Source: Candidatus Aenigmatarchaeota archaeon
Lineage (GTDB): Archaea; Aenigmatarchaeota; Aenigmatarchaeia; CG10238-14
Assembly: GCA_030018415.1 (NCBI GenBank)
Contig: JASEGC010000001.1
Span: 323,067 to 387,066 of the forward strand
Reading direction: 5' to 3'
Length of the DNA stretch: 64,000 nucleotides
The translations under genes were made by a program, and so were the position numbers. Below the pieces are notes generated by a model. It was not told where the DNA came from. It did not search any database and saw only the letters and a list, made by a program, of their open reading frames with translations. This document shows positions 1 through 33,811 of this stretch, one piece after another. Position 1 is the first letter of the stretch; each line of letters starts with the position of its first letter.

Positions 1-227
1 TTATCAAAACTAAAAAGGATGAAATTATAAAGAAGTTTAGACCGAATCCAATCACTTTTAACAAAATACCTAACAAACCAATTATTACAAAAGAAAGAAA
101 AAAAGAGATAGAAATCGTCTCTAAAAAGCTTCTTTTTATTCTTAGAAGAATTGTCAAGAATAGGCCAGGAACAATGAAAATAAAGGGGATCAAGATCAAT
201 GTAACAATATAATTTGCAATCATCTCA

Positions 228-1319
228 TCAACTTTCTATCAGTTTGATGTATTTTTCAGCAATTTTAGACCAGTCTAACTCCTTTTCAGCAAATCCCCCC
301 CCATTTTTCCCAAGAATTTTTCTTTTTTTAATATTTTCTGCTAAGTCTAACATTTTTTCGGTTAAATCTCTTTCATTCCCAGGCTCAAAAAGCAAACCAC
401 TATTGCTTTTTTTCACAACTTCACTCAAACCGCCCACATTTGATGCAATAATTGGTCTACCACAAGCCATAGCTTCTGCAATGACAATCGCAAAAGCTTC
501 TGAGTATTCTGAAGGAATTACTACTATATCTGAAGCTCTATAAATTTTTGGTAATTTTTTATGCTCCTTTTTACCGAGAAGCTTTACATTTGTAATTTTT
601 TCTGAACTAATAAGAGTTTTAATTTTCCTCTCCTCAGGCCCACTTCCGATAATCCATAACTCAAATCTCTCTGGGTTCAAATTTCTCATAGCTGCTAGTA
701 ATGTGTATACACCTTTCTTTTTCAGGAGTCCGCCGACGTATAAGAAAAAAATTTTTTCTTTTTCTTTAATTTTTGAAGGATAAAACAGTTTGGTATTCAC
801 ACCATTATAGATAACTTCGCTATCCAAACCTACTGTTTTTTTAACCTCTTTTTTCACAAAGTTGCTTATTGATACTATTTTGTCTGATGAACCAAACAAC
901 AAAGGATAATATAAAGGTTTTGTAAGTTCTCTCGGTCTACTTTGAAAGCAAAAAATGCTTTTGAATTTTTTTATTTTCTTTAACAGAAAAATTGAGTAAA
1001 TATCTGACCATTGACATGAAATTATAACATCAAAATTGAAATTCATCAAAAATGGGAATGATGAGATAGAAAGCGATGCTGATTCGATTAATGAACTGAT
1101 TTCCTCAAATGGTCTTCGCCCATATATCAATGATTCTCTCTTTATTATTGGAAATTTCAATAAATTAACTTTTATTTTTTTTCTTGGAGTTAAATTTTGC
1201 CCACAAATTAAATATACATCAAACCCTTTCTTTACGAATTCTCTACTAATATTTTCTGCCCAAATCTCTATTCCTCTAAATATTCTTCCATAACCAGAGC
1301 AGGGTATTAAAATTCTCAT
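228..1319 (-). CDS. Glycosyltransferase family 4 (GT-B fold)
   Basis: 363-aa ORF; C-terminal region 'EYSEAFAIVIAEAMACGRPIIASNVGGLSEVV' matches the Glycos_transf_1/GT4 signature. Confidence 0.8.
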   Translation of the reverse strand: MRILIPCSGYGRIFRGIEIWAENISREFVKKGFDVYLICGQNLTPRKKIKVNLLKFPIIKRESLIYGRRPFEEISSLIESASLSISSFPFLMNFNFDVIISCQWSDIYSIFLLKKIKKFKSIFCFQSRPRELTKPLYYPLLFGSSDKIVSISNFVKKEVKKTVGLDSEVIYNGVNTKLFYPSKIKEKEKIFFLYVGGLLKKKGVYTLLAAMRNLNPERFELWIIGSGPEERKIKTLISSEKITNVKLLGKKEHKKLPKIYRASDIVVIPSEYSEAFAIVIAEAMACGRPIIASNVGGLSEVVKKSNSGLLFEPGNERDLTEKMLDLAENIKKRKILGKNGGGFAEKELDWSKIAEKYIKLIES

Positions 1320-1326
1320 AATATTC

Positions 1327-2253
1327 CTACTTTATAATTCTTACGATTAAAAGCTCTGTAGAAACCCTTAGGATTTCTAGGATAAAAATTTTAACATGTC
1401 TGTAGATGTTGTAGCAGAAGTTCTTGAGTTTAACTTCCTTGTTCCTGAATCTATCACTTCTACTGCACAGAACATCTCCGAACACTCGTTTTTCAACTGA
1501 TATTACTGTCTCTGCTATACTACGCCTATGGTACTTCTCTTCATCGAATTCTTCGAGCATGAGTCTTCTGTACCTTCCCTTAACTCTTTTTCTTTTCCTT
1601 TCTCTAATCGGTATCATACTCTCTGCTCTGCATTCTTTTCTTGCAACCTTATGATTCTTCTCAGCATCGAATCCTTTGTCCATGCTGTAACCTCTTGGTT
1701 TCACGGCTCTATGACTTTTTCTTATCATAGAGACAGAATCCCTGTTGTCGTTCTTAGGACCCTTTCTCGTCCTCTGAGCAACTATGACTTGTTTTTCAGT
1801 ATCGACTGCTACTGAATTCTTCGTATAACCCTTTCTCTTCCTCTTCTTCTGTTTCTTGAGCTTCTTCGCGTAGTAAGCGCTCGCATGACTAGAGCTGTGT
1901 CCCGTACTGTCAATCGCTACCCAAGGATCTTTTATGTCGAATAGCTTTATACTCTCGTTGAAGATTCTGTCGAAGATGGATTAGCCAAGCCTCGCAAAGA
2001 ATTTCTGAATGGCTGAGAAATGTGGTATCCTCTTTAACTTCAAGATCTTTCTAACCTCGGACATCAACTCGAGGAGTTCAACAATTTCCCTGTACTTCAG
2101 CCTGAGCCTCTTCTTTATGCTGAGTATGCTTAGATGTTGATACTGAGTGTAGATGTGGTTCGAGAACTTGCATGAGTATGGAGGCAAAGACTTCTTGGCG
2201 ACTTTGATAACGGTCTTGACAAACTTTATAAGCTCATTTGACTTATTTTTCAT
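1327..2253 (-). pseudogene. DDE transposase (IS4/IS5-superfamily-like) interrupted by a single in-frame stop
   Basis: ORFs 1981-2253 and 1327-1728 share one frame. My translation of 1729-1980 in that frame is open and reads 'DPWVAIDSTGHSSSHASAYYAKK...KGYTKNSVAVDTEKQVIVAQ' (DDE-like core). The only interruption is the TAA at 1981-1983. N-terminal HTH-like 'HFSAIQKFFARL' and C-terminal '...EKRVFGDVLCSRSDRF' resemble IS5-type transposases. Confidence 0.55.
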
Positions 2254-2352: not shown

Positions 2353-2814
2353 ATGATATTTATGAAAGTATGTATAACTTGTAGTGCTGGAGGTCATTTA
2401 ATAGAATCCTTTAGGTTATTGCCAACAGTAAAAAAATATGATTTTTTCTATTTCACCTTTTTTGTGAAACATTTAAAAAAAACACTGAAAAAATATAGAG
2501 TTTATTTTACCATAAATCCAAAAAGAGGCCCGATAAAATTTCTAAAAGTAATATTCGATTCGATAAAGGTCTTGTTAAAGGAAAAACCAAACGTTATAAT
2601 ATCAACGGGTGCTGGTGTTACAGTACCTCTATGTCTGCTAGGTAAATTTTTCTTTAGGACAAAGTTGATTTATGTCGAGTGCTCTGCACAAGTTTATAAA
2701 CCATCTTATGCAGGTAGAGTGCTTTATTGGTTTGCAGACATGTTTTTTGTTCAATGGCCTTTTTTAGCTAAAGTATATGGAAAGAAAGCAGTGTATGGTG
2801 GATTATTAATATGA
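2353..2814 (+). CDS. Alg14-like glycosyltransferase accessory subunit (membrane-anchoring half of a bipartite GT28-type enzyme)
   Basis: 153 aa; 'CSAGGHLIE' GGH motif and size typical of the Alg14/Cps14F/EpsF family; overlaps the next gene by 4 nt. Confidence 0.6.
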   Translation: MIFMKVCITCSAGGHLIESFRLLPTVKKYDFFYFTFFVKHLKKTLKKYRVYFTINPKRGPIKFLKVIFDSIKVLLKEKPNVIISTGAGVTVPLCLLGKFFFRTKLIYVECSAQVYKPSYAGRVLYWFADMFFVQWPFLAKVYGKKAVYGGLLI

Positions 2815-3305
2815 TACTGGTAACTTGTGGAACTCATGAACAACCATTTAATAGGCTTCTAAAAAAAGTTGACGAACTTGTTCGATTTAAAAAAATAGGG
2901 GAGAAAGTCATTGCACAGGTTGGTTATTCAACATATATACCAAAAAACATCGAGTATTTTAGATTTGCTGATTTTAATGAGATGGAGAAGTTATTTGGCT
3001 CTGCTAACTTGATAATAACACATGGCGGAATTGGTTCGGTTTTACTAGCTATAAGAAAAAGAAAGAAGGTGATAGTGGTGCCAAGACTGAAAAAATTCAA
3101 TGAGCATTCTGATGACCACCAGGTGCAGGTAGTTAAGGAGCTGGAACGTCAAGACCTGATACTTGCAGTGTATGATATAGATAATTTGTATGATTCTATT
3201 GTTAAATCAAAAAAATTTTCATTACCAAAAAAATCCTTCGAGCAAAATATTATAGTTAATAAAATCAGGGAAGAATTGAATCGATGGGAGAAAATCAAAT
3301 GGTAA
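2811..3305 (+). CDS. Alg13-like glycosyltransferase catalytic subunit (Glyco_tran_28_C)
   Basis: 164 aa; 'ITHGGIGSVLLAI' motif; translationally coupled to the upstream Alg14-like gene. Confidence 0.65.
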   Translation: MILVTCGTHEQPFNRLLKKVDELVRFKKIGEKVIAQVGYSTYIPKNIEYFRFADFNEMEKLFGSANLIITHGGIGSVLLAIRKRKKVIVVPRLKKFNEHSDDHQVQVVKELERQDLILAVYDIDNLYDSIVKSKKFSLPKKSFEQNIIVNKIREELNRWEKIKW

Positions 3306-4018
3306 GCGACAAGACAAGAGTAAAATTAGCAAAGCTACTGAATGTAGTACCAGCTTGGGGTTCTGCAATTGAGAGGAAGTACATAGTGTTTGATCTGTTG
3401 AACAAGAAAAAGAAGATGATTTTGGATATTGGCTGTGGGTGGGGAGATGTATCTAGGTTTCTATCAAGATTTGGTAAAAAAGCTGTTGCGGTCGACATAA
3501 TTAAAGAGAAAATCAAAACAGGAGACAATTTTTTCCATGTCCTAGCGAGTGCTGAACAATTGCCATTTAAGGATGGTTCATTTGACCAGATCTTATGCAT
3601 GGATGTGATAGAACACCTGAAAAACGACAGCATTGCAGCCTCTGAAATGGCACGAGTTCTAATAAAAAATGGCGAGGCAATAATTACAACACCATCAAAT
3701 TTTTGGAAATACCCTTATTGGGGATTTATGAGATATTTCACAACAGACGAGAAGACTTTCATCAAGCAGGCAGCGCATGTCAAGAAGGGCTACAGTTTGG
3801 AAGAGTTGAAAAGCCTGTTTAAAGGTTTTGAAGTCAAAGATTGTAAATTTTATATAAACAATGGATTTTCGGCATTTGCTTGTGACATAGAATTTTCTTA
3901 CCTCAGGGTATTGGAGAACCTAATGCTTAAGGCAATGGGACTATTTCTACTTCTTAATTTCAAATTGTCCTCAAAGGGCAGAGGAACTCATATAGGAGTC
4001 AATTTTGTTAAAAAATAA
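3284..4018 (+). CDS. Class I SAM-dependent methyltransferase
   Basis: 'LDIGCGWGDVSRFL' motif I and 'ILCMDVIEHL' motif; true start probably at the internal Met near 3299. Confidence 0.75.
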   Translation: MGENQMVSDKTRVKLAKLLNVVPAWGSAIERKYIVFDLLNKKKKMILDIGCGWGDVSRFLSRFGKKAVAVDIIKEKIKTGDNFFHVLASAEQLPFKDGSFDQILCMDVIEHLKNDSIAASEMARVLIKNGEAIITTPSNFWKYPYWGFMRYFTTDEKTFIKQAAHVKKGYSLEELKSLFKGFEVKDCKFYINNGFSAFACDIEFSYLRVLENLMLKAMGLFLLLNFKLSSKGRGTHIGVNFVKK

Positions 4019-4019
4019 T

Positions 4020-5003
4020 TCAAAATCTTTTAAAATACGGAGGATTTACCATAAACCTTCTTATCTGCAATTCTGTTACCTTCCTTCCCCTTTGTACCTT
4101 TTTTCTTAATTTTAATACTCTTGGCAAATCCTTCATAGCGTCTTTTATTGCTTTTAGATTGACCAATGAACCTCTTGCAAGACCTCTTAAAATTGATAGC
4201 ACATTCCAAGTGATAATAAATGGCGAATAGAGTATTAAAGAACTTAGAGAAAAATTTTTAATTATCATCCAAAGCCAATTTCTGTGTGCATAGTAAGCTC
4301 CCCTTTCTGAATACTTTCCCATAGTTGTGCCAACTTCATGTTGAACTGTAACAGGAACATAAACGGATTTCCACCCCCTTAATCTCATCCTCCATCCCAA
4401 ATCAGCATCTTCATTGTAAATAAAAAATTCTGAATCTAACAAACCAACATCTTCTAATGTTTTTTTTCTGTACATACAGGCAACATTGTTCACTGCAAAA
4501 ACTTCTTCAACTTTATCATATTGGCCAATGTCTTTTTCTTTCCAACCTCGGTATCTCACTAGACCATCTTTAGAAGCTATAGTACCAGCAGCGTTGATTA
4601 TCTTTGGATTACGCATAAACACAAGTTTTGGACCAATAGCACCGATTTTTTCATCAGATTCAGCTATTTTTACCATTTCCATTAACCAATTTTTATTTGG
4701 TTTTGTGTCATTTGCTAAATTGCAGATGTACTTACCTTTAGCTACTCTCATTCCAACGTTGTTACCTTCTGCACAACCAAGATTTCTTCCATTTTCTATA
4801 ATTTTTACTTCTGGATAGTTCTTTTTTACAAATTTTACTGAGTTATCTGTAGAACCATTATCGGAAAGAATAACTTCAAAACTTGGATAGGTTTGATTAA
4901 AAACAGCATCTAAACAACGCTTAATAATTTTTTTACCATTCCAATTAAGAACTACTACAGAAACTAAAGGATGCTTACTTTTTAACTTAATATTATTCAC
5001 CAA
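4020..5003 (-). CDS. Glycosyltransferase family 2
   Basis: 'VSVVVLNWNGKKIIKRCLDAVFNQTYPSFEVILSDNGSTDNS' GT2 N-terminal signature. Confidence 0.8.
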   Translation of the reverse strand: MVNNIKLKSKHPLVSVVVLNWNGKKIIKRCLDAVFNQTYPSFEVILSDNGSTDNSVKFVKKNYPEVKIIENGRNLGCAEGNNVGMRVAKGKYICNLANDTKPNKNWLMEMVKIAESDEKIGAIGPKLVFMRNPKIINAAGTIASKDGLVRYRGWKEKDIGQYDKVEEVFAVNNVACMYRKKTLEDVGLLDSEFFIYNEDADLGWRMRLRGWKSVYVPVTVQHEVGTTMGKYSERGAYYAHRNWLWMIIKNFSLSSLILYSPFIITWNVLSILRGLARGSLVNLKAIKDAMKDLPRVLKLRKKVQRGRKVTELQIRRFMVNPPYFKRF

Positions 5004-5107: not shown

Positions 5108-6790
5108 TTAGTGAGTAGTGTTTAATACAATAAAAGTTCCAATCTTGAAATTTGGGTATTTTTCAATGGCATAATTCAATTGGTTTGGCAAACCAGCTAA
5201 AATATACTCGTCTATTATGGCATATCTAACATTGTATTTCAAAATGGTATCTTCAAAGGCAGTAAAGTTTTTTACTATCATATGATGTCTACTCACACTA
5301 AAAAACGGTTGGTTAGAATAAATCGCAACATCTGGTGGGGAGATGATTGTTTCATCTGGGCTAACATTATTTTTGACGAATTTAACTGTTTCTTCCAAGC
5401 CATATGATCCGTAATCGTATATCGTATCAAAAGTAGCTAAGATATGAATGCCGTTGATGTAAATGGAAGTTGCTAACAGAAGTACAACTACATAAAAAGC
5501 CAAATGATTCTGATACTTCTTATTGAAAATAAATGACAAAAGTATAACCGGTGCGAAATAAATCGCGCTAACTAATGCGACATCTCCTAAATTGTAACCC
5601 AGTCTAGGTGTTATAGTAAATGGGTCTTTTAGGAGTGATGTATAGTAAATTATCAGAAGAAACAAAATCACAACACCAAGTAAACATTGCTTTAGTTTGA
5701 TAGGTCGAATTACACCAGATACCCAATAAGCTATTAAAATGGAAAATGGGGCTAGGAGTACGTAATGGTATCTAGGGTAACCGTACGGAGCTGATGGCAA
5801 GATAATTGTATATAGAATTAAAACAAGTAGCCCATAAATTAACAAAAAATAACATTCATCTCTCTTATGTTTTGAAAACAATTTAAAAAAGAAAAATAAA
5901 CTAGTAGTGTGTATTAACACAAAAAATGCTGGAGAGAGTCTAAATGATAAAATTTGCAATATATTCAGAATGTATAATGGTTTCAAAAAGAATGTGGACG
6001 ATACAGAAGCTTGCCACTTAAAGATACAATTAAAATCAAGGTTATACACTGTTGTAGCAACGTACCATATAGAAAGCATTATAAAAATTCCAATCAACGC
6101 TATCACTATCGAATATACAATACCAAGCTTGAATTTTCCTTTTAGAATGTAATATGATAAAACTACAGGTGGCAAAAGTATGGGTGTGGTTTCTTTTACA
6201 AGGAGGCTCAATCCGAACATTAAACCAAGACCCAACAAGTATTTATTTTTTAATCTAAGATCTTTTGACTTTTTTACAATCCAAATAAATAAAAACACGA
6301 AAGAGAGGAGTACAAAATTAAGTACGGTGTTATCATTTTCTATAAGTAATGAACCACTTACAGCAAATGGGGTAATTGTATAGAAGAATATACTAAGATA
6401 CGCAAGTGCCATATTCCTTTTTCCAAACAGCTCTTTTGTTATGAGATATACTAATACAAGAGAAAATATGTTAAATAAAAATGCGAATGACCTTATAGAA
6501 ATAAACGATAGACCAAAAATACGTGTATAAGCTGTTAATAACAAAAGCCATGTTGGTATATGCCATATTGGATAGCATTCTTTTAGGTTGAAATCTTCTC
6601 CACCTCGATATATATCAAGATATAATATACCCTTATTTAACCCATCCACAACTTTCATAAAAATAGCTTCATCTTTTACAGGTGGTTTATTAAGACCACT
6701 TATAACAAAAATCAAATATAGTACAACTGATATATATGCAAGAAGCTTTGACAAAATTTGCCATGGTATTTTCTTTGTCTTCATTTTCAT
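5108..6790 (-). CDS. Polytopic membrane protein, putative GT-C fold glycosyltransferase (ArnT/PMT-like)
   Basis: 560 aa, more than 10 hydrophobic segments; sits in the glycosylation cluster; family assignment tentative. Confidence 0.4.
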   Translation of the reverse strand: MKMKTKKIPWQILSKLLAYISVVLYLIFVISGLNKPPVKDEAIFMKVVDGLNKGILYLDIYRGGEDFNLKECYPIWHIPTWLLLLTAYTRIFGLSFISIRSFAFLFNIFSLVLVYLITKELFGKRNMALAYLSIFFYTITPFAVSGSLLIENDNTVLNFVLLSFVFLFIWIVKKSKDLRLKNKYLLGLGLMFGLSLLVKETTPILLPPVVLSYYILKGKFKLGIVYSIVIALIGIFIMLSIWYVATTVYNLDFNCIFKWQASVSSTFFLKPLYILNILQILSFRLSPAFFVLIHTTSLFFFFKLFSKHKRDECYFLLIYGLLVLILYTIILPSAPYGYPRYHYVLLAPFSILIAYWVSGVIRPIKLKQCLLGVVILFLLIIYYTSLLKDPFTITPRLGYNLGDVALVSAIYFAPVILLSFIFNKKYQNHLAFYVVVLLLATSIYINGIHILATFDTIYDYGSYGLEETVKFVKNNVSPDETIISPPDVAIYSNQPFFSVSRHHMIVKNFTAFEDTILKYNVRYAIIDEYILAGLPNQLNYAIEKYPNFKIGTFIVLNTTH

Positions 6791-6804: not shown

Positions 6805-7959
6805 CTAACTACTTAGACAAGTTTCGTACAATTCTATATACTTCTTAACTATAATCCCTAGATCGAACTTTTTTGATACAAGTTTCCAACAATTTTTTGT
6901 CATTTTCTTTCGCAATGACGAATCTTCGTATAATGTTTTCATGGCACTTGTCATTTCACTTATATCAGGATTTACTAGTAGGGCGACACTATTATCAACG
7001 AGATATTTCATCTCTCCATTGTTTGTACTTATTATAGGAGTTCCACATGCCAAAGATTCCATAATAGATATGCTTATACTAGGTTCATAGGCAAAATAAT
7101 GCAATGTGGCGTCAGAACTTCTATAGTAGTTAATTAGTTCGCTTCTTTTCACAGCACCTGCTAAAATTACATTATTTTGAATGTCTAGTTTTTTGATTAA
7201 TTTTCTTAGAACTACTTCACCACCACCAAAACCAACAATTATATATTTTGCATTGTTTGCGTACTTAAGAAATTTTTCAAAAGCTAGTATAGAGTTAATT
7301 AACCCCAAAGTATTAGACTTAGAAAATATTTTAACTGATAAAAAAAGGAAATCATTTTTTTCGATGTTAAATAGGGGCCTTATATTTTTAATTTTTTTAA
7401 AAGGGTTCATAGCTTCAGTATCAATACCACTAGGAATTATTTTGATTTTTTCATGATTAATTTCCCATTTGTAAAAGTAGTTTTTAGCTAGATGTGTACT
7501 CCATGAAACTAAGTAATCATAATTTAAATGTTCGATGAAAAATTTTTCTAGTCCGAAATGAATTTTAGAGTGCATGGTGAGACGATTGGGCAAAACCTCA
7601 TTAACTAGTACATATGGCGTTTTAAATTTTCTTTTACACTTCTCTGCGAAAATTCCTTCGAAAGTGTGTTGAGAATGAATTATATCAACATCTTTAATTA
7701 GGGATTCCTTGTTTAGAAGACGAATTGCAAATTCATAATTTGTAATTGGCATATTAGTTTTACAATTTACTCTATATACCTCTGCTCTACCAAATCTACT
7801 TTTTAATTGCTCATTTGAAATACCAACGGTTATGACTTTTATTTCGTCTATTGATTTTTCTTTTTCTAAATTTTTTATAAAAGCACCAGCATACACACTA
7901 CTTCCAGCTTCAGTTTTACTACTTCTAGTAAAAGACAAGCTTAAAAAACCAAGCCTCAT
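6805..7959 (-). CDS. Glycosyltransferase family 4
   Basis: 384 aa; C-terminal 'ESLACGTPIISTNNGEMKYLV' Glycos_transf_1 motif. Confidence 0.75.
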   Translation of the reverse strand: MRLGFLSLSFTRSSKTEAGSSVYAGAFIKNLEKEKSIDEIKVITVGISNEQLKSRFGRAEVYRVNCKTNMPITNYEFAIRLLNKESLIKDVDIIHSQHTFEGIFAEKCKRKFKTPYVLVNEVLPNRLTMHSKIHFGLEKFFIEHLNYDYLVSWSTHLAKNYFYKWEINHEKIKIIPSGIDTEAMNPFKKIKNIRPLFNIEKNDFLFLSVKIFSKSNTLGLINSILAFEKFLKYANNAKYIIVGFGGGEVVLRKLIKKLDIQNNVILAGAVKRSELINYYRSSDATLHYFAYEPSISISIMESLACGTPIISTNNGEMKYLVDNSVALLVNPDISEMTSAMKTLYEDSSLRKKMTKNCWKLVSKKFDLGIIVKKYIELYETCLSS

Positions 7960-9870: not shown

Positions 9871-9930
9871 GTTTTGCACTTTTATAAAATTCTTCGTTTT
9901 CTGAGCCAAAATAATTATTGGTGATGAAAA

Positions 9931-11109: not shown

Positions 11110-11142
11110 AAAGTACAAAAGTTATAGAAATTATAGATTAGT

Positions 11143-12546: not shown

Positions 12547-12549
12547 TAT

Positions 12550-13350: not shown

Positions 13351-13355
13351 AAAAG

Positions 13356-21053: not shown

Positions 21054-21057
21054 TCGT

Positions 21058-21516: not shown

Positions 21517-21637
21517 AAGAGTTTTTGGTTACAGAGGAGACACAAAAAATTTTCCAATAATAATCTGTAAACTCTTAGGAATATTCGTGCCAAATCAATT
21601 TATATGTATCGCTTCAAAAACTTGATAAAGTGATGAA

Positions 21638-23107: not shown

Positions 23108-23135
23108 GTATAAATTTTCTCAAGAGTACAATCTT

Positions 23136-25805: not shown

Positions 25806-26801
25806 TTATACTAATTTATCTCTTATGAAACTTAATAAACCAAACAACAACCCGCTTGCCCACACGAATCCCCTTATAAAAAATAAGAATGCAATAAGAA
25901 TAGCAACTTTGTAATCCTTTTTTTTCAACGGAATTACAGTAGCTGGTATATGGATGATTAAAAGCACAAATGAAAAAACGAGAAATAAGAATTTTGAAAT
26001 TAAAAGAGAGAACGGAAGTAAAATATACAAGAACGGTTGAATTAAGGTTGTTATTCCTGCGTATTCATCCCCTTTCATAAATTCAGGTCTTCTTAGGTAG
26101 AGGAGAACTCTCCAGAAAGCATGATTAAATTGTTTTTTGAAGTATTCTACCAGAGATTCAGGATGCTTATGCCACACGTATGTATTCTTCAAGAAAATCA
26201 GATGGTATCCACTCTTTATTATTCTATAGCTTAAGTCGTTATCTTCTGCAGATGCAGTTTTAAAACTAGTATCGAACCCTTTCAACTTCTCAAGAATATC
26301 ACGTCGATAAGCAGTGCTATAACTGGCTAAAAAATTTGTTTTTTCACTGATCTTATTATGTCTTTGTTCTATTTCATATCCAACAAACCTAGCAATCCAG
26401 GAATTTTTATTCCATGTTTGGTACTTTACGCCCACACCAGCGACTTTTTCATTCTCGAATGGTTTTAGTATGTTTTTTAACCAATTCTTCCCGACTTTAC
26501 AATCAGAATCAAGAAAGATTACTATTTTCCCTCTAGCTTTTTTCCATCCGAGGTTTCTAGCTTCGGCTGGGCCTTTGTGTCTTTGTTTTACTAGTTTTAT
26601 CGGATAATTCTTCACTATTCTCAGCGTATTATCTTTGCTTCCATCATCGATAACGATTATTTCCACTTTCTCCCTGAATTTCTTTCTTTGTTTTAATAAA
26701 GAGTCTAAGACTTCTCTTATCGTGCTTTCAGAATTATAAGTCGGGATAACTATTGATATCATTAATCTTAAATAACTATTCAAAATATTTGTTTTTATCA
26801 T
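25806..26801 (-). CDS. Glycosyltransferase family 2 with C-terminal TM domain
   Basis: 'ISIVIPTYNSESTI...IIVIDDGSKDNT...FLDSDC'; likely true start at the internal 'MISIVIPTYN'. Confidence 0.75.
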   Translation of the reverse strand: MIKTNILNSYLRLMISIVIPTYNSESTIREVLDSLLKQRKKFREKVEIIVIDDGSKDNTLRIVKNYPIKLVKQRHKGPAEARNLGWKKARGKIVIFLDSDCKVGKNWLKNILKPFENEKVAGVGVKYQTWNKNSWIARFVGYEIEQRHNKISEKTNFLASYSTAYRRDILEKLKGFDTSFKTASAEDNDLSYRIIKSGYHLIFLKNTYVWHKHPESLVEYFKKQFNHAFWRVLLYLRRPEFMKGDEYAGITTLIQPFLYILLPFSLLISKFLFLVFSFVLLIIHIPATVIPLKKKDYKVAILIAFLFFIRGFVWASGLLFGLLSFIRDKLV

Positions 26802-26805: not shown

Positions 26806-28278
26806 GTGGTATCAATGAGAATCTTATTACTTAACCCACCTTTTTTACCGAGATACTCTAGACAGAGTAGATCGCCTTGTGTGAGTAAAGGTGGTACCTT
26901 CTATTTGCCATATTATTTGGCATATGCGGCAGGAGCTTTGGAGAAATCAGGATTTTCTGATATTAAGCTCATGGATGCTATAGCAAAGAATTGGTCTCGT
27001 AAAGAAACGATAAATTTTATCAAGTCCTTTAATCCAGATTTGATAATTGTTGATACAAGTACTCCAAGCATCCATAATGATGTCGAAGTTGCAGCTGAGA
27101 TAAAAAAAGCTTTACCAAATTCTCATGTTAACCTAGTTGGGACCCATCTAACCAGAAAAACAGAAGAAACTTTTGGTTTATCAGAAGCTATAGATTCAAT
27201 TTGTAGAGGAGAATATGATTTTACCTTAGTTGAGCTAGCCGAAGCTATAGAAAGTGAAAAACCTCTAAGAGAGATTGAAGGCTTATCTTTCAGAGAAGAT
27301 GGGAAAATTTTTCATAATCCTGAAAGACCATTGCTTACTTCAAAAGAATTGGATGAATTACCGTTTGTTTCTGAAGTCTATAAAAAACACTTGAACATAT
27401 GGGATTACTTTTATGCGTCTCTACTCTACCCACAAGTCACCATCTTAACTGCAAGAGGATGTCCGTTTAGTTGTAGCTTCTGTAACATACCTTTCAAAAA
27501 TTCTTACAGACCTAGAAGTCCAGAGAATGTGGTTGATGAATTTGAATACATTCAAGATGAATTACCGGAAGTAAGAGAAGTTATGATAGAGGACGATACT
27601 TTTCCAGTTTCAAAGAGAAGAACCATCGAAATTTCTGATTTGTTGATTAAAAGGAAAATAAAGATTTCTTGGTCATGTAATGCAAGAGTCGATACAGATT
27701 ACGAAACTTTGAAAAGAATGAAAGATGCTGGTTGCAGGCTATTATGCGTGGGGTTCGAGAGTCCTGTTCAAAAAACTCTAAACACTGTTCATAAAAAAAC
27801 AACTGCTAGAATGCAATTAGAGTTTATGAAGAATTGCAACAAACTTGGTTTACTGGTTAATGGGTGTTTTATTCTTGGCTTACCAGGAGATACAGAGGAA
27901 ACTATAAAAGAAACGATAGAATTTGCAAAAAAACTTAATCCTGATACTGTTCAATTCTATCCTCTTTTCTTATACCCAGGAACGGAAGCCTGGGATTGGG
28001 CAGAAGAAAATGGGTATCTTGCCAGCAAAGATTACTCAGCTTTGTTAACTAGAGAAGGTAAACACTTAAGTAATGCAGATTTACCTGGTTTAAACCATCT
28101 AAGGGCTACTTATCTTTGTGATAAGGCATTGAGAGAGTTCTACCTTCGACCAAAATACATTTTTTACAAACTCTTTCAGATTCTTTCCAACTTAGGAGAA
28201 GCTCAAAGGACTTTTCTTTCAGCAAAAATTTTCTTCAAGAACTTAATTTCTCCTTCCGTCCAACAAGCGTCTCTTTAA
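26806..28278 (+). CDS. Cobalamin-binding radical SAM enzyme (paralog 3)
   Basis: 490 aa; 'ARGCPFSCSFCNIP'; likely true start at 'MRILLLNPP'. Confidence 0.8.
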   Translation: MVSMRILLLNPPFLPRYSRQSRSPCVSKGGTFYLPYYLAYAAGALEKSGFSDIKLMDAIAKNWSRKETINFIKSFNPDLIIVDTSTPSIHNDVEVAAEIKKALPNSHVNLVGTHLTRKTEETFGLSEAIDSICRGEYDFTLVELAEAIESEKPLREIEGLSFREDGKIFHNPERPLLTSKELDELPFVSEVYKKHLNIWDYFYASLLYPQVTILTARGCPFSCSFCNIPFKNSYRPRSPENVVDEFEYIQDELPEVREVMIEDDTFPVSKRRTIEISDLLIKRKIKISWSCNARVDTDYETLKRMKDAGCRLLCVGFESPVQKTLNTVHKKTTARMQLEFMKNCNKLGLLVNGCFILGLPGDTEETIKETIEFAKKLNPDTVQFYPLFLYPGTEAWDWAEENGYLASKDYSALLTREGKHLSNADLPGLNHLRATYLCDKALREFYLRPKYIFYKLFQILSNLGEAQRTFLSAKIFFKNLISPSVQQASL

Positions 28279-28683: not shown

Positions 28684-29199
28684 CTAAGAAATTTTTCTAA
28701 ACGCAAAAACCCAACCTGTAGCTATTGCTGGGGTCATCTTACCAAGCAAAATATCGACCAATAAAAAATTTTTATAGAATGGTAGGAATCCTAAACTTTC
28801 ACCGAACATCGGTCTAGGGTAAAAATCAATCAATTCAAATCCATATTTTTGTAATAAAATTTTGAATTCATTTGGTTTCCAATAGTGTTTGTGTTCTTCT
28901 AGTTTCAGAAATAAATTAAGAACCTCCCAAAAGGACGATTTATTCGGTATGCTTACTATTAGCAAACCATTGGATTTAAGATGATTATGAATTTTCTTTA
29001 AACTTTTATTGGGGTATTTTAAATGCTCTAAAATATCTAAAGCGAGAATTAAGTCAAACTTTTCTTTAAAATCAATTTTTACAATTTTTCTTGCAATGTT
29101 GAGTCTATCTTTGTTAACGTTAATGCCGATAACATTCCATTTTTCGCTTAAAATCAAAGTTAACAAACCACATCCGCAACCTATATCCAGAATTAACAC
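28684..29199 (-). CDS. Class I SAM-dependent methyltransferase
   Basis: 'MLILDIGCGCGLLTLIL' motif I; 'ILALDILEHL'. Confidence 0.7.
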   Translation of the reverse strand: MLILDIGCGCGLLTLILSEKWNVIGINVNKDRLNIARKIVKIDFKEKFDLILALDILEHLKYPNKSLKKIHNHLKSNGLLIVSIPNKSSFWEVLNLFLKLEEHKHYWKPNEFKILLQKYGFELIDFYPRPMFGESLGFLPFYKNFLLVDILLGKMTPAIATGWVFAFRKIS

Positions 29200-29549: not shown

Positions 29550-30498
29550 TCATTCTAGGCATAAACCATTATAAATATTTCTTAATTTTTTTGCAATTAT
29601 TTTCCAGTCTAATTTTTCTTCCGCTGTTTTTCGTGCATTTCTTTCTATTTTCTTTCTAAGCATCTCATTATACAACAATTCAACTGTTGCTTCACCGAAC
29701 TTCTTTGGATTATTCGAAGTCAAAATGCCATTATGATAGTTTTCTATAATTTCTTTGGCAACACCAACATTACTTGCAACTACGGCTTTTCCGCTAGCTA
29801 AGTATTCGCCAAGTTTAACAGGACTTCTTGAGTGGTTAGCCAAATTATCCTTCATCGGTAGTACGACCACATCTGCAGCTCCGATGAATTCAGGTACCAA
29901 TTCCCTTCTTTTATGACCAACAAAAATTACATTTCTTTCAAGTTTTAATTTTTTAACTCGTTCAAAAAATTCTATTTTCCTCGGTCCATCTCCTACAATT
30001 ATTAATTTTGCAGGAAGATCATTTACAACATATTTCATAGCGTCTATAACTATATCTAAATCGCACGACTTGTAAAGAACACCAACAAAAACAATCAGAG
30101 GACAACTGAATTTATCTCTAATTTTTGAACCCTTATATTTCGGTTTAAAAAAATCAACATCAACTCCGTTTGGTATCAAGTACACTTTTGAATTAAATTT
30201 TTCGGCTATTTTTTTAGAAAAGTGGTAACTGTTACTATCGCATCGGCTTTTCTTACGCATGATATCTGGAATGAATCCAAAAAATCCCTGAGAAAGAATG
30301 GATCGAATTCAGCGAAGCCGCCTTCCCCCTCCCAATCGTCCCAATCGAGTATTAGCTTTGCACCCTTCAATTTTGAAATAACATAAGAAGGAATAAATGA
30401 ACTCAGCAAAGGTTTAAAACAATGTACAATATCATAATCTTTCATGAATTTTATAACTTTGTAGAAAATACCATGTGAAAGTGTTAAGTACAAACTTT
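29550..30498 (-). pseudogene. GT4 glycosyltransferase, frameshifted body (C-terminal and middle parts)
   Basis: ORFs 29550-30260 (GT4 C-terminal domain 'PLIVFVGVLYKSCDLD...AADVVVLPM') and 30206-30493 (middle part) overlap out of frame; upstream half separated by an IS insertion. Confidence 0.6.
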
Positions 30499-31361
30499 AG
30501 GGGTGTGCAAAATTACAACACACCCCAGCTCTAATTCTTATGTATGAACAAAGCCTATGAAATAGTTAGACTCTTGATAAATAAAAAGATTGTTCATGAA
30601 AAACATGGAAGAGGCAGAAAGGGCTACGGAGTACTGAGGAGGGTTAGACTTCTAGCGTATGCGATGCTCAAGAGGATACACACTGACAAGGGTTTGATAG
30701 AACACTTGAAGAAGAACCCAAGAGTAACGAGAATATTGGGATTCAAGACAATTCCACACAGAACAACTATAGGAAGGTGGAAGAACCATTCTGATGCATT
30801 AAAACAAACCTTCAACAGATTGAGTGACATGATTCAATCGATGATACCGACTGAGCTTCTGATAGTAGACTCGACTCCTCTAGAGGATGATGATCCTGAT
30901 GCAAGAGTAGGCTTCTACTCCAGAGGACCATTCAAGGGATTCAAGACTCATTCGAGCATTAACCAGGCTGGCATACCTTTGAGAGCAGAAGTGACAACAG
31001 GGAACAGACACGATTGTCCATTGCTGCCAAAGTTACTAGTCAAGTCAGTCCAAACTCTGGGGGATTCAGGATATGACAGTAAGAGTAACAGGAAGGCTAT
31101 CAGGAGCATTGGTAGCAAATCAATCATAGCCAAGAACAGAAGGAGGTCGAAGAAGAGGAGATGGGTGCCGAAGATTCTCAAGAAGAAACGATACATAGTT
31201 GAACAGTTCAATTCATTACTCAAAGAAGTTCTCAGAGAATGCTGGAAGAGGTTCAGAGGATTAGAGAAGAAAGCTTCAGTAGTCTACTCAGCGTTGATAT
31301 CGATACTGTTGATTGCTCTACAAGCGATGATAAGAAAGTTAATTAATTTTGCACACATCTA
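30499..31361 (+). mobile_element. IS5-family insertion sequence inserted into a GT4 gene
   Basis: Terminal inverted repeats 'gtgtgcaaaatta' at 30503-30515 and, reverse-complemented, 31344-31356. Flanked by 10-bp direct repeats 'tacaaacttt' (30489-30498, 31362-31371) consistent with a target-site duplication. Contains a transposase ORF. Confidence 0.6.
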
Positions 31362-31386
31362 TACAAACTTTTTAAATAGGGAGTGA
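30544..31386 (+). CDS. IS5-family DDE transposase
   Basis: 280 aa; 'LLIVDSTPLED', 'GDSGYDSKSNRKAI', 'YIVEQFNSLLK' match the IS5 D-D-E blocks; ORF runs slightly past the right IR. Confidence 0.65.
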   Translation: MNKAYEIVRLLINKKIVHEKHGRGRKGYGVLRRVRLLAYAMLKRIHTDKGLIEHLKKNPRVTRILGFKTIPHRTTIGRWKNHSDALKQTFNRLSDMIQSMIPTELLIVDSTPLEDDDPDARVGFYSRGPFKGFKTHSSINQAGIPLRAEVTTGNRHDCPLLPKLLVKSVQTLGDSGYDSKSNRKAIRSIGSKSIIAKNRRRSKKRRWVPKILKKKRYIVEQFNSLLKEVLRECWKRFRGLEKKASVVYSALISILLIALQAMIRKLINFAHIYTNFLNRE

Positions 31387-31549
31387 ATTTTATGTTTAAT
31401 TCTTCAAACCACTCTCCGGCATTATTACTCTTACTACCATCAAAAACTACTTCTACATCAAATTTCTTTGAAACATTTTTTGCCAAATTCAATATTCTTG
31501 TAGCATTTCCACTAGTTATATCAGAGTAAGACATCATGCAGATTTTCAA
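31362..31549 (-). pseudogene. N-terminal fragment of the IS-disrupted GT4 glycosyltransferase
   Basis: 68-aa ORF 'MKICMMSYSDITSGNATRILNLAKNVSKKFDVEVVFDG' (typical GT4 N-terminus) ends inside the IS right end. Confidence 0.55.
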
Positions 31550-31615
31550 GCTTTCACCTATAAAACATTAATAAAAGTAACATTCAAATATCAAAGTATA
31601 TCTTAAGGCATTGGC

Positions 31616-33811
31616 ATGATAGACTTAAACAAAATAAGAAATTGGTCGATCACTCTAGGAATACTTCTTTTCATAATTTTTTTATCAACGTGGGTAAGAC
31701 TTTCAACCATAAATTCTCCTACTGTCCTCGATTACGATCCGTTTTGGTGGTATAGGTATGCAAAAATTATACTGGAAAACGGTTTTAAAATGCCAGAATG
31801 GGATATCTTGAGTTTCTACCCACCAGGAAGACCAACAGAGCCATTTCAAGGTTGGCCGTATACGATAGCAATTTTCTACAAGATATTGAATTCCCTCTCT
31901 GGAATGGATTTCACAAGAGCAGCAATCATCTCTCCATTGATAACGGTTGCTTTAATCCCGATCCCAGCCTTCTTTCTAGGAAAATTTTTAACAGGGAATA
32001 ATATAGCAGGCTTAGCTACTGCTATATTCGCTACTCTTACACCAGCCTTCATCGGAGTAAGTATGGCTGGTTACTGCGATAGTGACGCTCCAGTTGTTTT
32101 TTACTCTTTCTTCTCTGTTTTATTCACTATTCTTGCTATGAAGAAAAGGTCAATCCCCTTCTACTTTCTAGCAATCCTTGCGAATTTGATGTTTATCTAC
32201 AATTGGGGCGGAGGCTGGATTACTCTTATTTTGTTCCTTGTTTTTATTCTGACAATTATTCCATTCAGAGTTTTAGAAGATGTTATTCACACAAAAAAAC
32301 TCACTTTAAGTCTGAGTGGTGTTTTGAAGGAGGTAAAAACCCTTTTCATCCCACTGATAGTCATCATCTTGATAACTAATGTTGTAGGTTTTATACTCTG
32401 GCGAATGACCATGTTTCACTCTCTTTTCGGTGGGTTAGTGTTCACCGGGTTAGTTGGCCAACCTCTTATAGTTAACGTTTCTGTGGCTGAGTTACAACCA
32501 ATAAATGTCTTCTCGAGAGAAGGTTTTCTGGCTGTAGTAAGTAGAGTTGGTTTACTTCCAGTCATTTTAACATTTTTTGGTCTTCCACTTTTAGTATTGT
32601 ATAAATTATACAGAAGAGAGAGGATCGCTTTCGAGGAAATATTTCTTTTTCTTTGGGCTTTAGTTATGTTCTACTTGATAACCCGAGGTATAAGGTTTTC
32701 TTTACTGTTTTCTATCGCAGCTGCCACTTCAGCCGGATACGCAATCGGGAATTTCTACAATTATCTTAAAGGTAGAAACTTAGTTATTTTTTCAACTGCT
32801 TTTGGTTTGGTAGGACTCTTAATCTTGATGTTTATTTCAGACGCAATACAGATAGGTTATGCATCATCAGGAATGCTTTTGAGTCAAAATTGGTACGATA
32901 TGCTCGATTGGCTAAAAAGCAATGCTAAGAAAGATGCTATAGTAGCTACATGGTGGGATCCTGGACATATTATAGCTGGTTACACTGGCTTAAGAGTTCA
33001 TGCAGATGGTGCTCACTGTGGCCCTACCGTATGCATTCCATACAATCACAACGTCAGGATACAAGACATGGGGAGGATTATGTCCACGAGCGACGAAAAG
33101 GAAGCTATATCCATCTTGAAAAAGTACATGCAATTAACTCCAGAACAATGTCAAGAAGTTAAACAAAAATTCGGCGATATCATCCCAAAAGAAGCATGCG
33201 AACCTGCTTCAGAGATGTACTTCATTTCCAGCAATGATTTGATAGGAAAATTCACATGGATGAATTACTTTGGCGGCTACAGAGCACCTATCAAATCTAA
33301 CGCAGATTTCCAAGCTAATCCTGGAGTTTGTTGTGCCTCCACACCAAAAACAGAACCTGGTCAAATATCATGCGGAGAGTTTGCTGCTCAAGGCAAGGGA
33401 GTATGGGTGTGGTGTCCTTGGATATTCTCTTTCTCAGAAGTGAAGCAAGATCAAGAAGGTAACCCTGTCTATGTCTACGATTATGCTGGTTTAAAGATAG
33501 CGATCATCCAGAAAGGGGACAACCTTATCCCCATCTACAACAACAGATTCCTCATAAATCATCTCACCTTTTTCCCACAAGGGTCAGCTAAACCGCAAGC
33601 TATTGATTTAACAAGGCTAAACACATCATTGGAAAGAATAGATGGTTTGATATGGATAGACCCAAGCTTCAGGAATTTGATATACTTTGCACCCTCTATC
33701 AAAGACAGTATCTTCACGAGGACTTTCTTCTTCGACGGCGAGGGTTTGAAGCATTTTGATTTAGTTTACTCTAACCCAGAAATAAGGTTGTATAAACTCA
33801 ATTTTGATTAA
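31616..33811 (+). CDS. aglB: Archaeal oligosaccharyltransferase AglB (STT3 family)
   Basis: 731 aa; about 13 N-terminal TM helices, then 'ATWWDPGHIIAGYTG' (WWDYG catalytic motif) and a large C-terminal soluble domain. Confidence 0.85.
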   Translation: MIDLNKIRNWSITLGILLFIIFLSTWVRLSTINSPTVLDYDPFWWYRYAKIILENGFKMPEWDILSFYPPGRPTEPFQGWPYTIAIFYKILNSLSGMDFTRAAIISPLITVALIPIPAFFLGKFLTGNNIAGLATAIFATLTPAFIGVSMAGYCDSDAPVVFYSFFSVLFTILAMKKRSIPFYFLAILANLMFIYNWGGGWITLILFLVFILTIIPFRVLEDVIHTKKLTLSLSGVLKEVKTLFIPLIVIILITNVVGFILWRMTMFHSLFGGLVFTGLVGQPLIVNVSVAELQPINVFSREGFLAVVSRVGLLPVILTFFGLPLLVLYKLYRRERIAFEEIFLFLWALVMFYLITRGIRFSLLFSIAAATSAGYAIGNFYNYLKGRNLVIFSTAFGLVGLLILMFISDAIQIGYASSGMLLSQNWYDMLDWLKSNAKKDAIVATWWDPGHIIAGYTGLRVHADGAHCGPTVCIPYNHNVRIQDMGRIMSTSDEKEAISILKKYMQLTPEQCQEVKQKFGDIIPKEACEPASEMYFISSNDLIGKFTWMNYFGGYRAPIKSNADFQANPGVCCASTPKTEPGQISCGEFAAQGKGVWVWCPWIFSFSEVKQDQEGNPVYVYDYAGLKIAIIQKGDNLIPIYNNRFLINHLTFFPQGSAKPQAIDLTRLNTSLERIDGLIWIDPSFRNLIYFAPSIKDSIFTRTFFFDGEGLKHFDLVYSNPEIRLYKLNFD

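Follow-up and report, generated by a model that had tools for sequence, protein, structure and literature searches.

Among the described systems closest to the locus reported here are the agl cluster of Haloferax volcanii (AglB, AglJ, AglG, AglI, AglE, AglD, AglR, AglS, AglP and AglM) and the bacterial HpnI-HpnJ-HpnK module. The locus lies in a genome assembly of Candidatus Aenigmatarchaeota archaeon (GCA_030018415.1, contig JASEGC010000001.1, positions 323,067 to 387,066 of the forward strand); the whole stretch of 64,000 nucleotides was analysed and is called the window. Its first 33.8 kb end in an aglB gene and contain two copies of a gene pair in which a B12-type radical S-adenosylmethionine (SAM) enzyme (rSAM), apparently of a sister family of HpnJ, stands beside a membrane-anchored glycosyltransferase (GT) of family GT2. 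As in Haloferax, the genes are clustered with aglB, and both loci encode an AglJ-like GT2 for dolichyl phosphate (Dol-P), soluble GTs, a flippase, a Dol-P-sugar synthase with a GT-C enzyme that adds sugar outside, and a SAM methyltransferase. The island differs in having four GT-C enzymes (against one), a split Alg14/Alg13 GT, AsnB and three B12-type rSAMs. To our knowledge, split Alg14/Alg13-type GTs, AsnB and B12-type rSAMs are absent from the characterised haloarchaeal, methanococcal and Sulfolobus pathways, and we found no literature that links radical SAM enzymes with AglB in archaea (the sole co-mention is in an unrelated Pectobacterium genomics paper). An initial annotation, made from the letters of the window, had ascribed to this block far more tailoring capacity than characterised Agl clusters possess; this holds against the model organisms only, for the rSAM-GT2(-methyltransferase) cassette, several B12-type rSAMs together, Alg14/13 and GT-C genes are found again in dozens of loci of DPANN archaea, Hydrothermarchaeota and some bacteria, and part of the equipment is pseudogenised in the island.

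In the hpn module, which converts bacteriohopanetetrol (BHT) via BHT-N-acetylglucosamine and BHT-glucosamine into the cyclitol ether of BHT, a membrane GT2 gene likewise stands beside a B12-type rSAM gene. The role given to HpnJ goes back to a knockout alone: once HpnI, a GT2, has attached the sugar, HpnJ would contract the glucosamine of BHT-glucosamine to the cyclitol ether. A like action is proposed for Cds (calditol) and PtmC (pactamycin). Cds (Saci_1489 of Sulfolobus acidocaldarius) is an archaeal rSAM proposed to form a cyclopentitol by contracting a hexose that has already been joined to the lipid; its homologs are reported mainly from acidic habitats, whereas most members of the island's rSAM family come from DPANN archaea and Hydrothermarchaeota, with some from bacteria. 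HpnI/HpnJ, Cds and PtmC may together serve as a precedent, by analogy, for a GT acting first and a radical ring contraction following. AprD4 (aminoglycoside 3'-deoxygenation) and OxsB (oxetanocin ring contraction) are non-methylating rSAMs with the B12-type N-terminal domain that rearrange or dehydrate a sugar ring, although their identity to the island's enzymes is only 15-21% and their substrates are soluble small molecules. Unlike the hpn module, the island has no HpnI-type GT2, no HpnK deacetylase and no hopanoids, and the context of the cassette is GPT, Alg14/Alg13, GT4, Wzx and AglB.

All 28 open reading frames (ORFs) of at least 100 aa in positions 1-33,811 were searched by Pfam, NCBIfam and PDB sequence comparison. 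About 23 of the 28 are glycan-related, whereas 34-64 kb hold a single GT2 and a single EamA transporter, and every gene class listed in the initial annotation, which had proposed such profile searches, was recovered at its place. The window has a GC content of about 34% and carries archaeal markers (RPA, RadA, histone, tRNA-intron endonuclease, aRF1). We are highly confident that a DPANN archaeon (a Candidatus Aenigmarchaeota metagenome-assembled genome, MAG) carries in the 1-33.8 kb block a glycosylation island linked to AglB. A two-branch architecture, with cytoplasmic assembly of a lipid-linked oligosaccharide (LLO) and an extracytoplasmic branch of Dol-P-sugars and GT-C enzymes, is likely, and the explanation that we favour overall, with some reserve, is AglB-dependent N-glycosylation plus Dol-P-sugar/GT-C decoration, combined with radical remodelling of a lipid-linked sugar.

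The two HpnJ-like enzymes, rSAM1 (21638-23107, +, in cassette 1) and rSAM2 (26806-28278, +, divergent from its GT2), scored 431.6 and 412 bits with the NCBIfam model HpnJ (TIGR03471), whose 472 positions were covered from 20 to 466 by residues 18-478, in effect over the full length. Their next-best model was BchE (190 and 179 bits), and the best methylase model, PhpK, reached 135-137 bits. The three B12-radical SAM enzymes that had been claimed for the block all carry CxxxCxxC: at residue 209 in the third enzyme (rSAM3, 11143), at residue 218 in rSAM1 (CPFNCLFC) and at residue 219 in rSAM2 (CPFSCSFC); in the same order, the Pfam B12-binding domain scored 78, 31.6 and 39 bits, the second value narrowly missing the cutoff of 32.1, while the scores for Radical_SAM were 78-89 bits. 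In tblastn against annotated plasmid/chromid records, annotated HpnJ proteins from hpnI-hpnJ-hpnK clusters were 35-39.5% identical over about 92% of the length, an unannotated Lawsonia homolog was 44.5% identical, and BchE and all other B12-type rSAMs reached at most 31%; HpnJ and the island's enzymes are thereby each other's closest characterised relatives. Moreover, rSAM1 is nearer to HpnJ (317 bits) than to the island's own rSAM3 (227 bits), and in a rough neighbour-joining tree the GT2-linked rSAM clade was sister to HpnJ, apart from the rSAM3-like proteins and BchE. On these comparisons the rSAM1/rSAM2 family is placed as the sister of bacterial HpnJ. The best PDB sequence match of the HpnJ-like rSAMs was AprD4, a sugar-modifying, non-methylating enzyme. 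An AlphaFold model of rSAM1 (pLDDT 85.7) showed a class-B rSAM fold, which Foldseek matched to TsrM, AprD4, OxsB, CysS and TokK with TM-scores of 0.6-0.77, the highest being that of AprD4; MgmA matched as well. The rSAM1 protein is identical to one from a Candidatus Aenigmarchaeota MAG and is named only "radical SAM protein" in the public database.

Both enzymes are paired with a membrane-anchored GT2. Partner 1 (23136-24128, +; Pfam Glycos_transf_2 126 bits, Glyco_transf_21 and Glyco_trans_2_3) is a GT-A protein with DD, DSD and GED motifs and two C-terminal transmembrane (TM) helices; partner 2 (25806-26801, -), identified by Pfam, blastp and hydropathy, has three. By blastp, rSAM1 and rSAM2 are 67.6% identical and their partners 37.6%, and the duplication that had been noticed in the island is this rSAM-GT2 pair, an old paralogous one. 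The initial annotation had counted three polyprenyl-phosphate GT2s. Only the one at 8932-9870 matches full-length ArnC/GtrB, and that at 18824-19525 is AglJ/Dol-P-hexose-like, whereas the two partners were tried as ArnC/GtrB-type Dol-P-sugar synthases and rejected (ArnC 30-39 bits; PDB matches spanning the N-terminal 100-170 residues only). This weakens the case for a modified Dol-P-monosaccharide with GT-C transfer in these cassettes.

The pairing extends far beyond the window. The rSAM family is 60-85% identical across Aenigmarchaeota, Pacearchaeota/Nanoarchaeota, Micrarchaeota, Hydrothermarchaeota and Asgard-labelled MAGs, and rSAM1 and rSAM2 keep all invariant residues of the alignment (A1). 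A scan of species-representative genomes gave 80 loci, mostly from DPANN archaea and Hydrothermarchaeota, plus Iainarchaeota, with bacterial homologs (Fibrobacterota, Chloroflexota, Omnitrophota and one Pirellulales MAG) at 45-49% identity. To annotate the loci, ORFs were called and compared with the window's proteins by blastp. Sixty-seven loci have at least 1.3 kb downstream of the rSAM; in 56 of these a GT2 of the 23136/25806 type follows on the same strand at a distance of at most 2.5 kb, and in 37 it directly adjoins the rSAM. Within 3.5 kb of the rSAM (82 loci), such a GT2 was found in 78%, a GT4 in 55%, an epimerase/dehydratase in 44%, a methyltransferase in 30% (25/82) and Alg13/14 in 24% (20/82); GPT occurs in 19 loci, often in the order GPT-Alg14-Alg13-rSAM-GT2, and genes for AglB, Wzx and GT-C enzymes are met repeatedly. 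Two Chloroflexota MAGs encode the rSAM as a fusion with a C-terminal O-methyltransferase of FkbM/RfbT type (L062:2059-4425, 789 aa; L081:10001-12481, 827 aa), which links the small methyltransferase that recurs beside the rSAM to the step of the latter. From this conservation, the rSAM-GT2(-methyltransferase) unit appears as a conserved cassette of early LLO assembly and no local oddity.

Some of these loci have further genes beside the rSAM. It is bordered by genes of GDP-heptose type (SIS isomerase, GHMP kinase, HAD phosphatase/nucleotidyltransferase) in an Aenigmarchaeota MAG (L002:1-2704) and on the 27-kb Lawsonia intracellularis plasmid 1 (L086, NC_008012.1), which further holds five genes for methyltransferases and another one for a radical SAM enzyme; in these two lineages the substrate may be a heptose, and the window is without such genes. 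An LPG_synthase_TM (MprF-flippase-like) gene follows hpnK in a hopanoid cluster (L087:8186-9247) and also lies near archaeal rSAM homologs (L002:7296-8267; L092:7410-8309), being absent from the window; its product might serve specifically to flip the lipid-linked sugar once this has been modified.

In the cassette, the GT2 would add a sugar to a lipid-linked intermediate, the rSAM would remodel that sugar and the adjacent methyltransferase would O-methylate the product. We tentatively propose, from homology and at less than even confidence, that rSAM1 and rSAM2 carry out a non-methylating radical remodelling of the lipid-linked sugar just added by the partner GT2, and in our judgement a C-C rearrangement without methylation has better odds than mere C-methylation. 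The leading candidate reaction, by analogy, would be ring contraction to a cyclitol followed by O-methylation; the remaining probability falls to other chemistry, such as dehydration or epimerisation. The full form of this proposal, which is decidedly speculative and which we consider doubtful as a whole, is that the HpnJ-sister rSAM, the GT2 and the O-methyltransferase install a radically rearranged sugar, such as an ether-linked carbocycle of cyclitol type that withstands glycosidases and acid, on the dolichol-linked intermediate at an early stage of N-glycan assembly, right after GPT and Alg14/Alg13 have acted.

Several points weigh against these proposals or against the pathway into which they are set. 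The HpnJ scores of rSAM1 and rSAM2 lie below the equivalog cutoff of 577.6, and the partner GT2s, tried as HpnI, gave 34 bits against a cutoff of 310. HpnI and HpnK from a genuine hpnIJK cluster were searched by tblastn (E <= 1e-4), and neither matched the window or any of 88 related loci. On these negatives we rejected the reading of the locus as an hpn module; the relation to that module is one of analogy and rSAM homology, not of membership. The fold matches methylases (TsrM, CysS, TokK, MgmA) and non-methylases (AprD4, OxsB) equally, so the structure does not discriminate, and the function of HpnJ itself is assigned from a knockout. A ring-contracted sugar cannot be a glycosyl donor, and such chemistry fits only if the modified sugar remains in the glycan. 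Cobalamin supply may be lacking in DPANN archaea. Within the 64-kb window, three GPT (PF00953) queries gave no tblastn match. No known glycoprotein target is encoded in the window, and nearby secreted/CARDB-like proteins show no sequon enrichment (0.2-0.7 N-x-S/T per 100 aa, against a background of 0.44). Finally, an insertion sequence (IS2, described below) could be polar on the 13-kb gene run downstream of it.

The island ends, as the initial annotation had stated, in an AglB/STT3 oligosaccharyltransferase (31616-33811, +; 731 aa; Pfam PF02516 STT3 77.4 bits, cutoff 24.5), which matched STT3A, STT3B and AglB structures with E-values from 7.5e-10 to 2.6e-4. Its D39-Y-D41 (LDYDPFWWYR) aligns with EFDPYFNYR of human STT3A, and its WWDPG at 446-450 with WWDYG of STT3A. 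A hydropathy scan, a crude predictor, gave about 10 TM helices within residues 7-407 followed by 320 non-hydrophobic residues, so that the WWDxG protein has the membrane topology of STT3. Downstream of WWDxG, at the place of a DK or MI motif, stands no more than a DK-like segment, DMGRIM (484-489), with Arg for Lys. An exact-sequence look-up of the protein gave no record. It is 39% identical to AglB of the close relative L088 (L088:13356-15776), whereas the flanking genes are 56-87% identical, and 59% identical to AglB of an unrelated MAG (L044), which suggests from the identities that the aglB allele was replaced at the right end of the island.

The steps of the proposed pathway follow from established family functions. 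A dolichol-linked oligosaccharide would be built in the cytoplasm by the AglJ-like GT, the split EpsE/EpsF enzyme (Alg14/Alg13 fold), the two membrane GT2s, the soluble GT2 and the two GT4s; alternatively, a GPT encoded elsewhere in the genome would start it. Wzx would flip the oligosaccharide and AglB would transfer it to Asn. In the second branch, the epimerase/dehydratase would feed the ArnC/GtrB-type GT2, and Dol-P-sugar donors would be used outside by the four GT-C enzymes according to AglD/AglS or ArnC/ArnT logic. Tailoring would come from three or four SAM methyltransferases, AsnB (probably converting a uronic acid to a uronamide) and the three B12-type rSAMs.

The first branch is represented by the following genes. 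The AglJ/Dol-P-hexose-synthase-like GT2 (18824-19525, +; 233 aa, no TM; NCBIfam AglJ 120 and Dol-P hexose transferase 100 bits, both below cutoff) is 87.5% identical in the relatives L088 and L089 and is a candidate for charging Dol-P with the first sugar. The split GT-B enzyme, which had been predicted as an Alg13/Alg14-like bipartite transferase, consists of an Alg14-like membrane-association/acceptor half of EpsE/PssD/Cps14F type (2353-2814, +; Pfam Alg14 74 bits; PssD 130, cutoff 110) and an Alg13-like catalytic half of EpsF/PssE/Cps14G type (2811-3305, +; Pfam Glyco_tran_28_C 63 bits; PssE 138.6, cutoff 120), the two genes overlapping by 4 nt and both NCBIfam cutoffs being passed. Like EpsE/EpsF (Cps14F/Cps14G, PssD/PssE), Alg14/Alg13 and the fused Agl24 of Sulfolobus, the pair would be a GT-B enzyme, here of two genes, that acts on a lipid-linked sugar. 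It groups with the EpsE/EpsF type, whose acceptor is lipid-linked Glc and whose transferred sugar is Gal or Glc, and not with the eukaryote-like, GlcNAc-transferring Alg13/14 clade (described in 10.1101/2021.01.19.427365). A soluble GT2 (4020-5003, -) scored 92 bits with Pfam Glycos_transf_2 and has no predicted TM. Two GT4s are intact: 228-1319 (-), a GT-B protein (Pfam Glycos_transf_1 139 bits plus Glyco_transf_4) 69% identical to the GT4 of L090, and 6805-7959 (-; Glycos_transf_1 86 bits), 47-49% identical to GT4s of L089 and L090. The claim of at least eight GT2/GT4 enzymes therefore stands for five GT2s and two intact GT4s; the eighth (29550-31549) is a frameshifted pseudogene split by an IS. 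The predicted Wzx flippase is a MOP-family protein with 12 TM helices by hydropathy (19539-21053, +; Pfam Polysacc_synt 62.3 bits, cutoff 28.2, with Polysacc_synt_3 and MatE).

Among the tailoring genes, MT1 (3284-4018, +; 244 aa; Pfam Methyltransf_11/23/25) and MT2 (12550-13350, +; 266 aa; Methyltransf_11/25/31) are class I SAM methyltransferases. A small class I methyltransferase of 171 aa (28684-29199, -; Methyltransf_23 66 bits) has its motif I from residue 4 and may be slightly shortened at the 5' end; equivalents of 177-190 aa adjoin the rSAM in other loci. The four SAM methyltransferases of the initial annotation were all found, one of them (21058-21459) being truncated by a 64-bp tandem duplication. 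AsnB (13356-15275, +), a glutamine-dependent amidotransferase, scored 287 bits with Pfam Asn_synthase, plus GATase_7, and 461 bits with TIGR01536 (cutoff 267), and the nucleotide-sugar epimerase/dehydratase (8007-8969, +), an NAD-dependent enzyme, 225 bits with GDP_Man_Dehyd and 203 with Epimerase (NCBIfam GalE 227, below its cutoff of 262), so both are what they had been called.

The second branch begins with this epimerase/dehydratase, the first gene of a co-directional run at 8007-24128 (+; 16 kb, 14 genes). Its gene overlaps that of the ArnC/GtrB-type polyprenyl-phosphate GT2 (8932-9870, +), which matched ArnC (E 1e-50) and GtrB (E 4e-43) along its whole length (residues 3-304) and has TM helices at 237-255 and 266-284. 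The NCBIfam ArnC score of 209 bits lies below the cutoff of 529, and the sugar should therefore differ from that of ArnC. Before IS2 was inserted, the ATG of the rSAM3 gene (11143-12546, +) stood 1 nt after the stop codon of this GT2. rSAM3 scored 78 bits each with Pfam B12-binding and Radical_SAM, and 234, 219 and 208 bits with the NCBIfam models HpnJ, ApyD and BchE, all below cutoff. Its homologs are at most 63% identical, and by its sequence it belongs to a separate, more diverse and uncharacterised B12-rSAM family. In another locus (L091), AsnB, rSAM3-like and MT2-like genes and a membrane protein gene also stand together, in an order different from that of the window. Four GT-C proteins with 8-11 TM helices each (hydropathy) were found where four to five had been expected, three of them above the PMT_2 cutoff and one divergent: 5108-6790 (-; PMT_2/GT39-like, about 11 TM; 57.5 bits), 15272-16882 (+; about 10 TM; 29.8 bits, cutoff 26.1), 24160-25773 (-; between the two cassettes; 52.9 bits; 56-63% identical in L088 and L090) and the divergent, GT39-like 16922-18805 (+; 627 aa). 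The last has about 10 TM helices, a C-terminal soluble domain of about 210 aa and no Pfam match; hhalign against the window's PMT_2 set gave 94.9% probability (E 4e-8) with the loop-1 D-x-G-x-H motif aligned, the identical NCBI protein is named GT39, and one homolog bears PF13231. The order epimerase, Dol-P-sugar synthase, rSAM, methyltransferase, AsnB, GT-C, GT-C would by analogy mirror ArnC/ArnD/ArnT logic. In the ArnC-ArnD-ArnT and GtrA-GtrB-GtrC systems, too, a polyprenyl-phosphate sugar is made, modified, flipped and transferred by a GT-C; unlike there, the modifiers of the island would be a B12-type rSAM, a methyltransferase and AsnB instead of a deformylase, and no GtrA/ArnEF-type small flippase was found in the island.

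Comparison with related AglB neighbourhoods, which had been suggested as a check, showed that the site is shared. In three close relatives (L088, L089 and L090) the rSAM is 81-84% identical to that of the window, and the common core order is GT-C(627), AglJ-like GT2, (PMT_2), Wzx, methyltransferase remnant, rSAM, GT2, methyltransferase, GPT (-), PMT_2 (-) and, further on, GT4 and AglB. The right border is AglB-histone-RPA-RadA (RPA and RadA by Pfam), in the identical order in L088; the archaeal histone gene (33917-34111, +; 65 aa, below the 100-aa ORF cutoff) was located by tblastn with the L088 histone (51% identity). Shared core order and border indicate an old chromosomal site with variable content. 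The relatives encode GPT inside the cluster, between the GT2 and the GT-C (in L088 and L090, the counterpart of 24160-25773), and the window has the second, inverted GT2-rSAM pair instead. The left border lies outside the window, since a hydrophobic membrane-protein gene (1-224, -, 5' part; N-terminus MIANYIVTLILIPFIF) is open across 1-227. An independent Logan assembly contains an identical 11-kb stretch.

Three insertion sequences (IS), each with inverted repeats and 8-10 bp target-site duplications, confirm what had been read as IS elements. IS1 (1352-2345) is decayed, with 18-bp inverted repeats (1352-1369, 2328-2345), an 8-bp direct repeat CGATTAAA (1344-1351, 2346-2353) and a transposase remnant that is a 133-aa C-terminal fragment of DDE_Tnp_1 (1327-1728, -); it lies between the divergent GT4 and the start codon of Alg14. 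IS2 (9868-11125, +), with inverted repeats, a 10-bp duplication AGAAATTATA (9858-9867, 11126-11135) and a transposase of DDE_5/ISC1217 type that is intact (9931-11109), is inserted exactly between the ArnC-like GT2 stop codon and the rSAM3 start codon and so interrupts the 14-gene run. IS3 (30499-31361, +) carries an IS5-like DDE_Tnp_1/DUF772 transposase (30544-31386), inverted repeats (30498-30515, 31344-31361) and a 10-bp duplication TACAAACTTT (30489-30498, 31362-31371). It splits the GT4 pseudogene (29550-31549, -), which is also frameshifted near 30206-30260: the N-terminal pieces are 31343-31549 and 30206-30493 and the C-terminal domain is 29550-30260. Excision of IS3 in silico joins the first two pieces into one 164-aa frame, and the 236-aa GT4 ORF is therefore a pseudogene fragment. 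The truncated small methyltransferase (21058-21459, +) contains a perfect 64-bp tandem duplication (21389-21452/21453-21516, repeat family D4) with a premature stop. The length of the duplicated unit is not a multiple of three, and with one copy removed the ORF of 133 aa grows to 167 aa and stops shortly ahead of the rSAM start. L088 has a 63-aa remnant of this gene only; in the window, too, it is probably a pseudogene. The duplication may have arisen by mutation very recently, or else be an artefact of assembly; the independent Logan contig starts downstream of it.

Codon third-position GC content (GC3) is lower in the island (0.280) than in the rest of the window (0.343; Mann-Whitney p = 4.5e-4). 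The composition check proposed for a horizontal origin had a divided outcome, with the lower GC3 on one side and no foreign tetranucleotide signature on the other (r = 0.94-0.98). The notion of a fast-evolving region was borne out by the three IS, the lower GC3 and the identity of AglB to the relative (39%, against 56-87% for the flanks). With the three IS, the IS-split GT4, the truncated methyltransferase, the divergent aglB, the second cassette copy and the lack of GPT, the island is being reshaped.

How the rSAMs act is the first matter on which other explanations have to be weighed. The initial annotation had expected C-methylation, and all three enzymes might be cobalamin-dependent C-methyltransferases (GenK/Fom3-like) that act on N-glycan sugars: methylation is the commonest reaction of class B radical SAM enzymes, each protein combines a B12-binding with a radical SAM domain, the top Foldseek match by E-value is the methylase TsrM (with CysS, MgmA and TokK also matching), and rSAM3 scores about equally on HpnJ, ApyD and BchE and also matches P-methylases and the methyl-coenzyme M reductase (MCR) glutamine C-methyltransferase. 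We nevertheless regard this as unlikely, though deserving serious consideration. For rSAM1 and rSAM2, which are HpnJ sisters (412-432 bits) and score far lower with BchE (179-190) and lower still with all methylase models (137 bits or less), the earlier expectation was not upheld; their nearest solved sequence relative, AprD4, is a non-methylase, and a separate SAM-dependent O-methyltransferase is persistently adjacent or fused to the rSAM. Class B methylases need no such partner, and the methyl chemistry thus probably comes from the O-methyltransferase. The cassettes, perhaps with the GT-C genes, might instead build a glycolipid or lipoglycan head group (calditol- or cyclitol-ether-like, resistant to acid and glycosidases) on scavenged archaeal lipids. 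The repeated co-operonic occurrence with GPT, Alg14/Alg13, GT4, Wzx and AglB points to a dolichol-linked oligosaccharide and makes this improbable, even though HpnJ and Cds, as proposed, both work on a hexose already bound to a membrane lipid, the partner GT2 has GT21 (ceramide-glucosyltransferase-like) and Glyco_trans_2_3 signatures with C-terminal TM helices, and LPG_synthase_TM accompanies hpnJ in the hopanoid cluster as well as archaeal homologs in some loci.

The remaining alternatives concern the island as a whole. As the initial annotation had also considered, it may comprise two pathways, the four PMT_2/GT39-like GT-C enzymes forming a second system independent of AglB (PMT-like O-glycosylation or a separate surface polysaccharide); we consider this possible, if somewhat unlikely, and it is compatible with the N-glycosylation and GT-C decoration that we favour. 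Matches to the PMT_2 family and a dedicated ArnC/GtrB-type Dol-P-sugar synthase with its own epimerase speak for it, while neither a Wzy polymerase nor a chain-length regulator was among the Pfam matches, and the acceptors of the GT-C enzymes are not readable from sequence. In Haloferax, the GT-C AglS puts the last N-glycan sugar on from Dol-P-mannose, so that GT-C enzymes need not mean a separate pathway. Very doubtful, in our view, is the other extreme, in which the island is largely a decaying remnant with much of its capacity unexpressed. The promoter region of the Alg14 operon does contain one IS and the junction of GT2 and rSAM3 a second, a GT4 is IS-split and frameshifted, a methyltransferase is truncated by the 64-bp duplication, and GPT is missing; yet 22 long ORFs are intact, both HpnJ-like rSAM paralogs keep the invariant residues and 60-85% identity to cross-phylum homologs, and the perfect 10-bp duplications at two of the three IS (IS2 and IS3) suggest that these events are recent.

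In the other half of the window, a stand-alone DPM/AglJ-like GT2 of 253 aa lies within 50556-52640 (-), 17 kb outside the island; it is 30% identical to the GT2 at 18824-19525, stands about 470 nt from an EamA-family transporter and may be a further Dol-P-sugar synthase. Three candidate surface proteins at 42085-47007 (-) have N-terminal signal/anchor sequences and weak CARDB, NPCBM_assoc or fn3-like matches. An MNT/HEPN toxin-antitoxin pair (Polbeta nucleotidyltransferase and HepT RNase; 41154-41992, +) directly follows tRNA-Val (41005-41075). A tRNA gene of 126 nt (58110-58235, -; Rfam 39 bits, missed by ARAGORN), evidently intron-bearing, sits 280 nt from tRNA-Leu (57744-57829), with which it shares acceptor-end sequences (repeat families D8 and D16), and a 24-mer at 61326-61349 resembles a tRNA 3' end and was called by neither Rfam nor ARAGORN.

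AglB-anchored clusters are well known, and it is the HpnJ-sister rSAM-methyltransferase-GT2 cassette within LLO operons that appears undescribed: a compact, highly conserved set of three genes (HpnJ-like rSAM, small methyltransferase, membrane GT2) at the core of these operons. We found no DPANN N-glycan structure in the literature, and likewise nothing on radical SAM enzymes with DPANN archaea, whose surface chemistry matters because they depend on contact with the host surface. The island also illustrates how such a locus evolves, by IS insertion, cassette duplication, loss of a priming enzyme and replacement of the aglB allele. If the rSAMs should be C-methylases instead, they would still represent a new sugar modification of archaeal glycans. 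If HpnJ-like chemistry holds true, carbocycle-forming sugar chemistry would extend from lipid head groups to protein glycans, and the cassette would offer a test system, free of soluble substrates, for the uncharacterised HpnJ reaction. Should the product indeed be carbocyclic, it would be a class of modification undescribed for any N-glycan and common to many DPANN archaea, Hydrothermarchaeota and some bacteria, and the hopanoid HpnJ would be a specialised offshoot of a broader enzyme family that acts on the principle of glycosylation followed by ring contraction.

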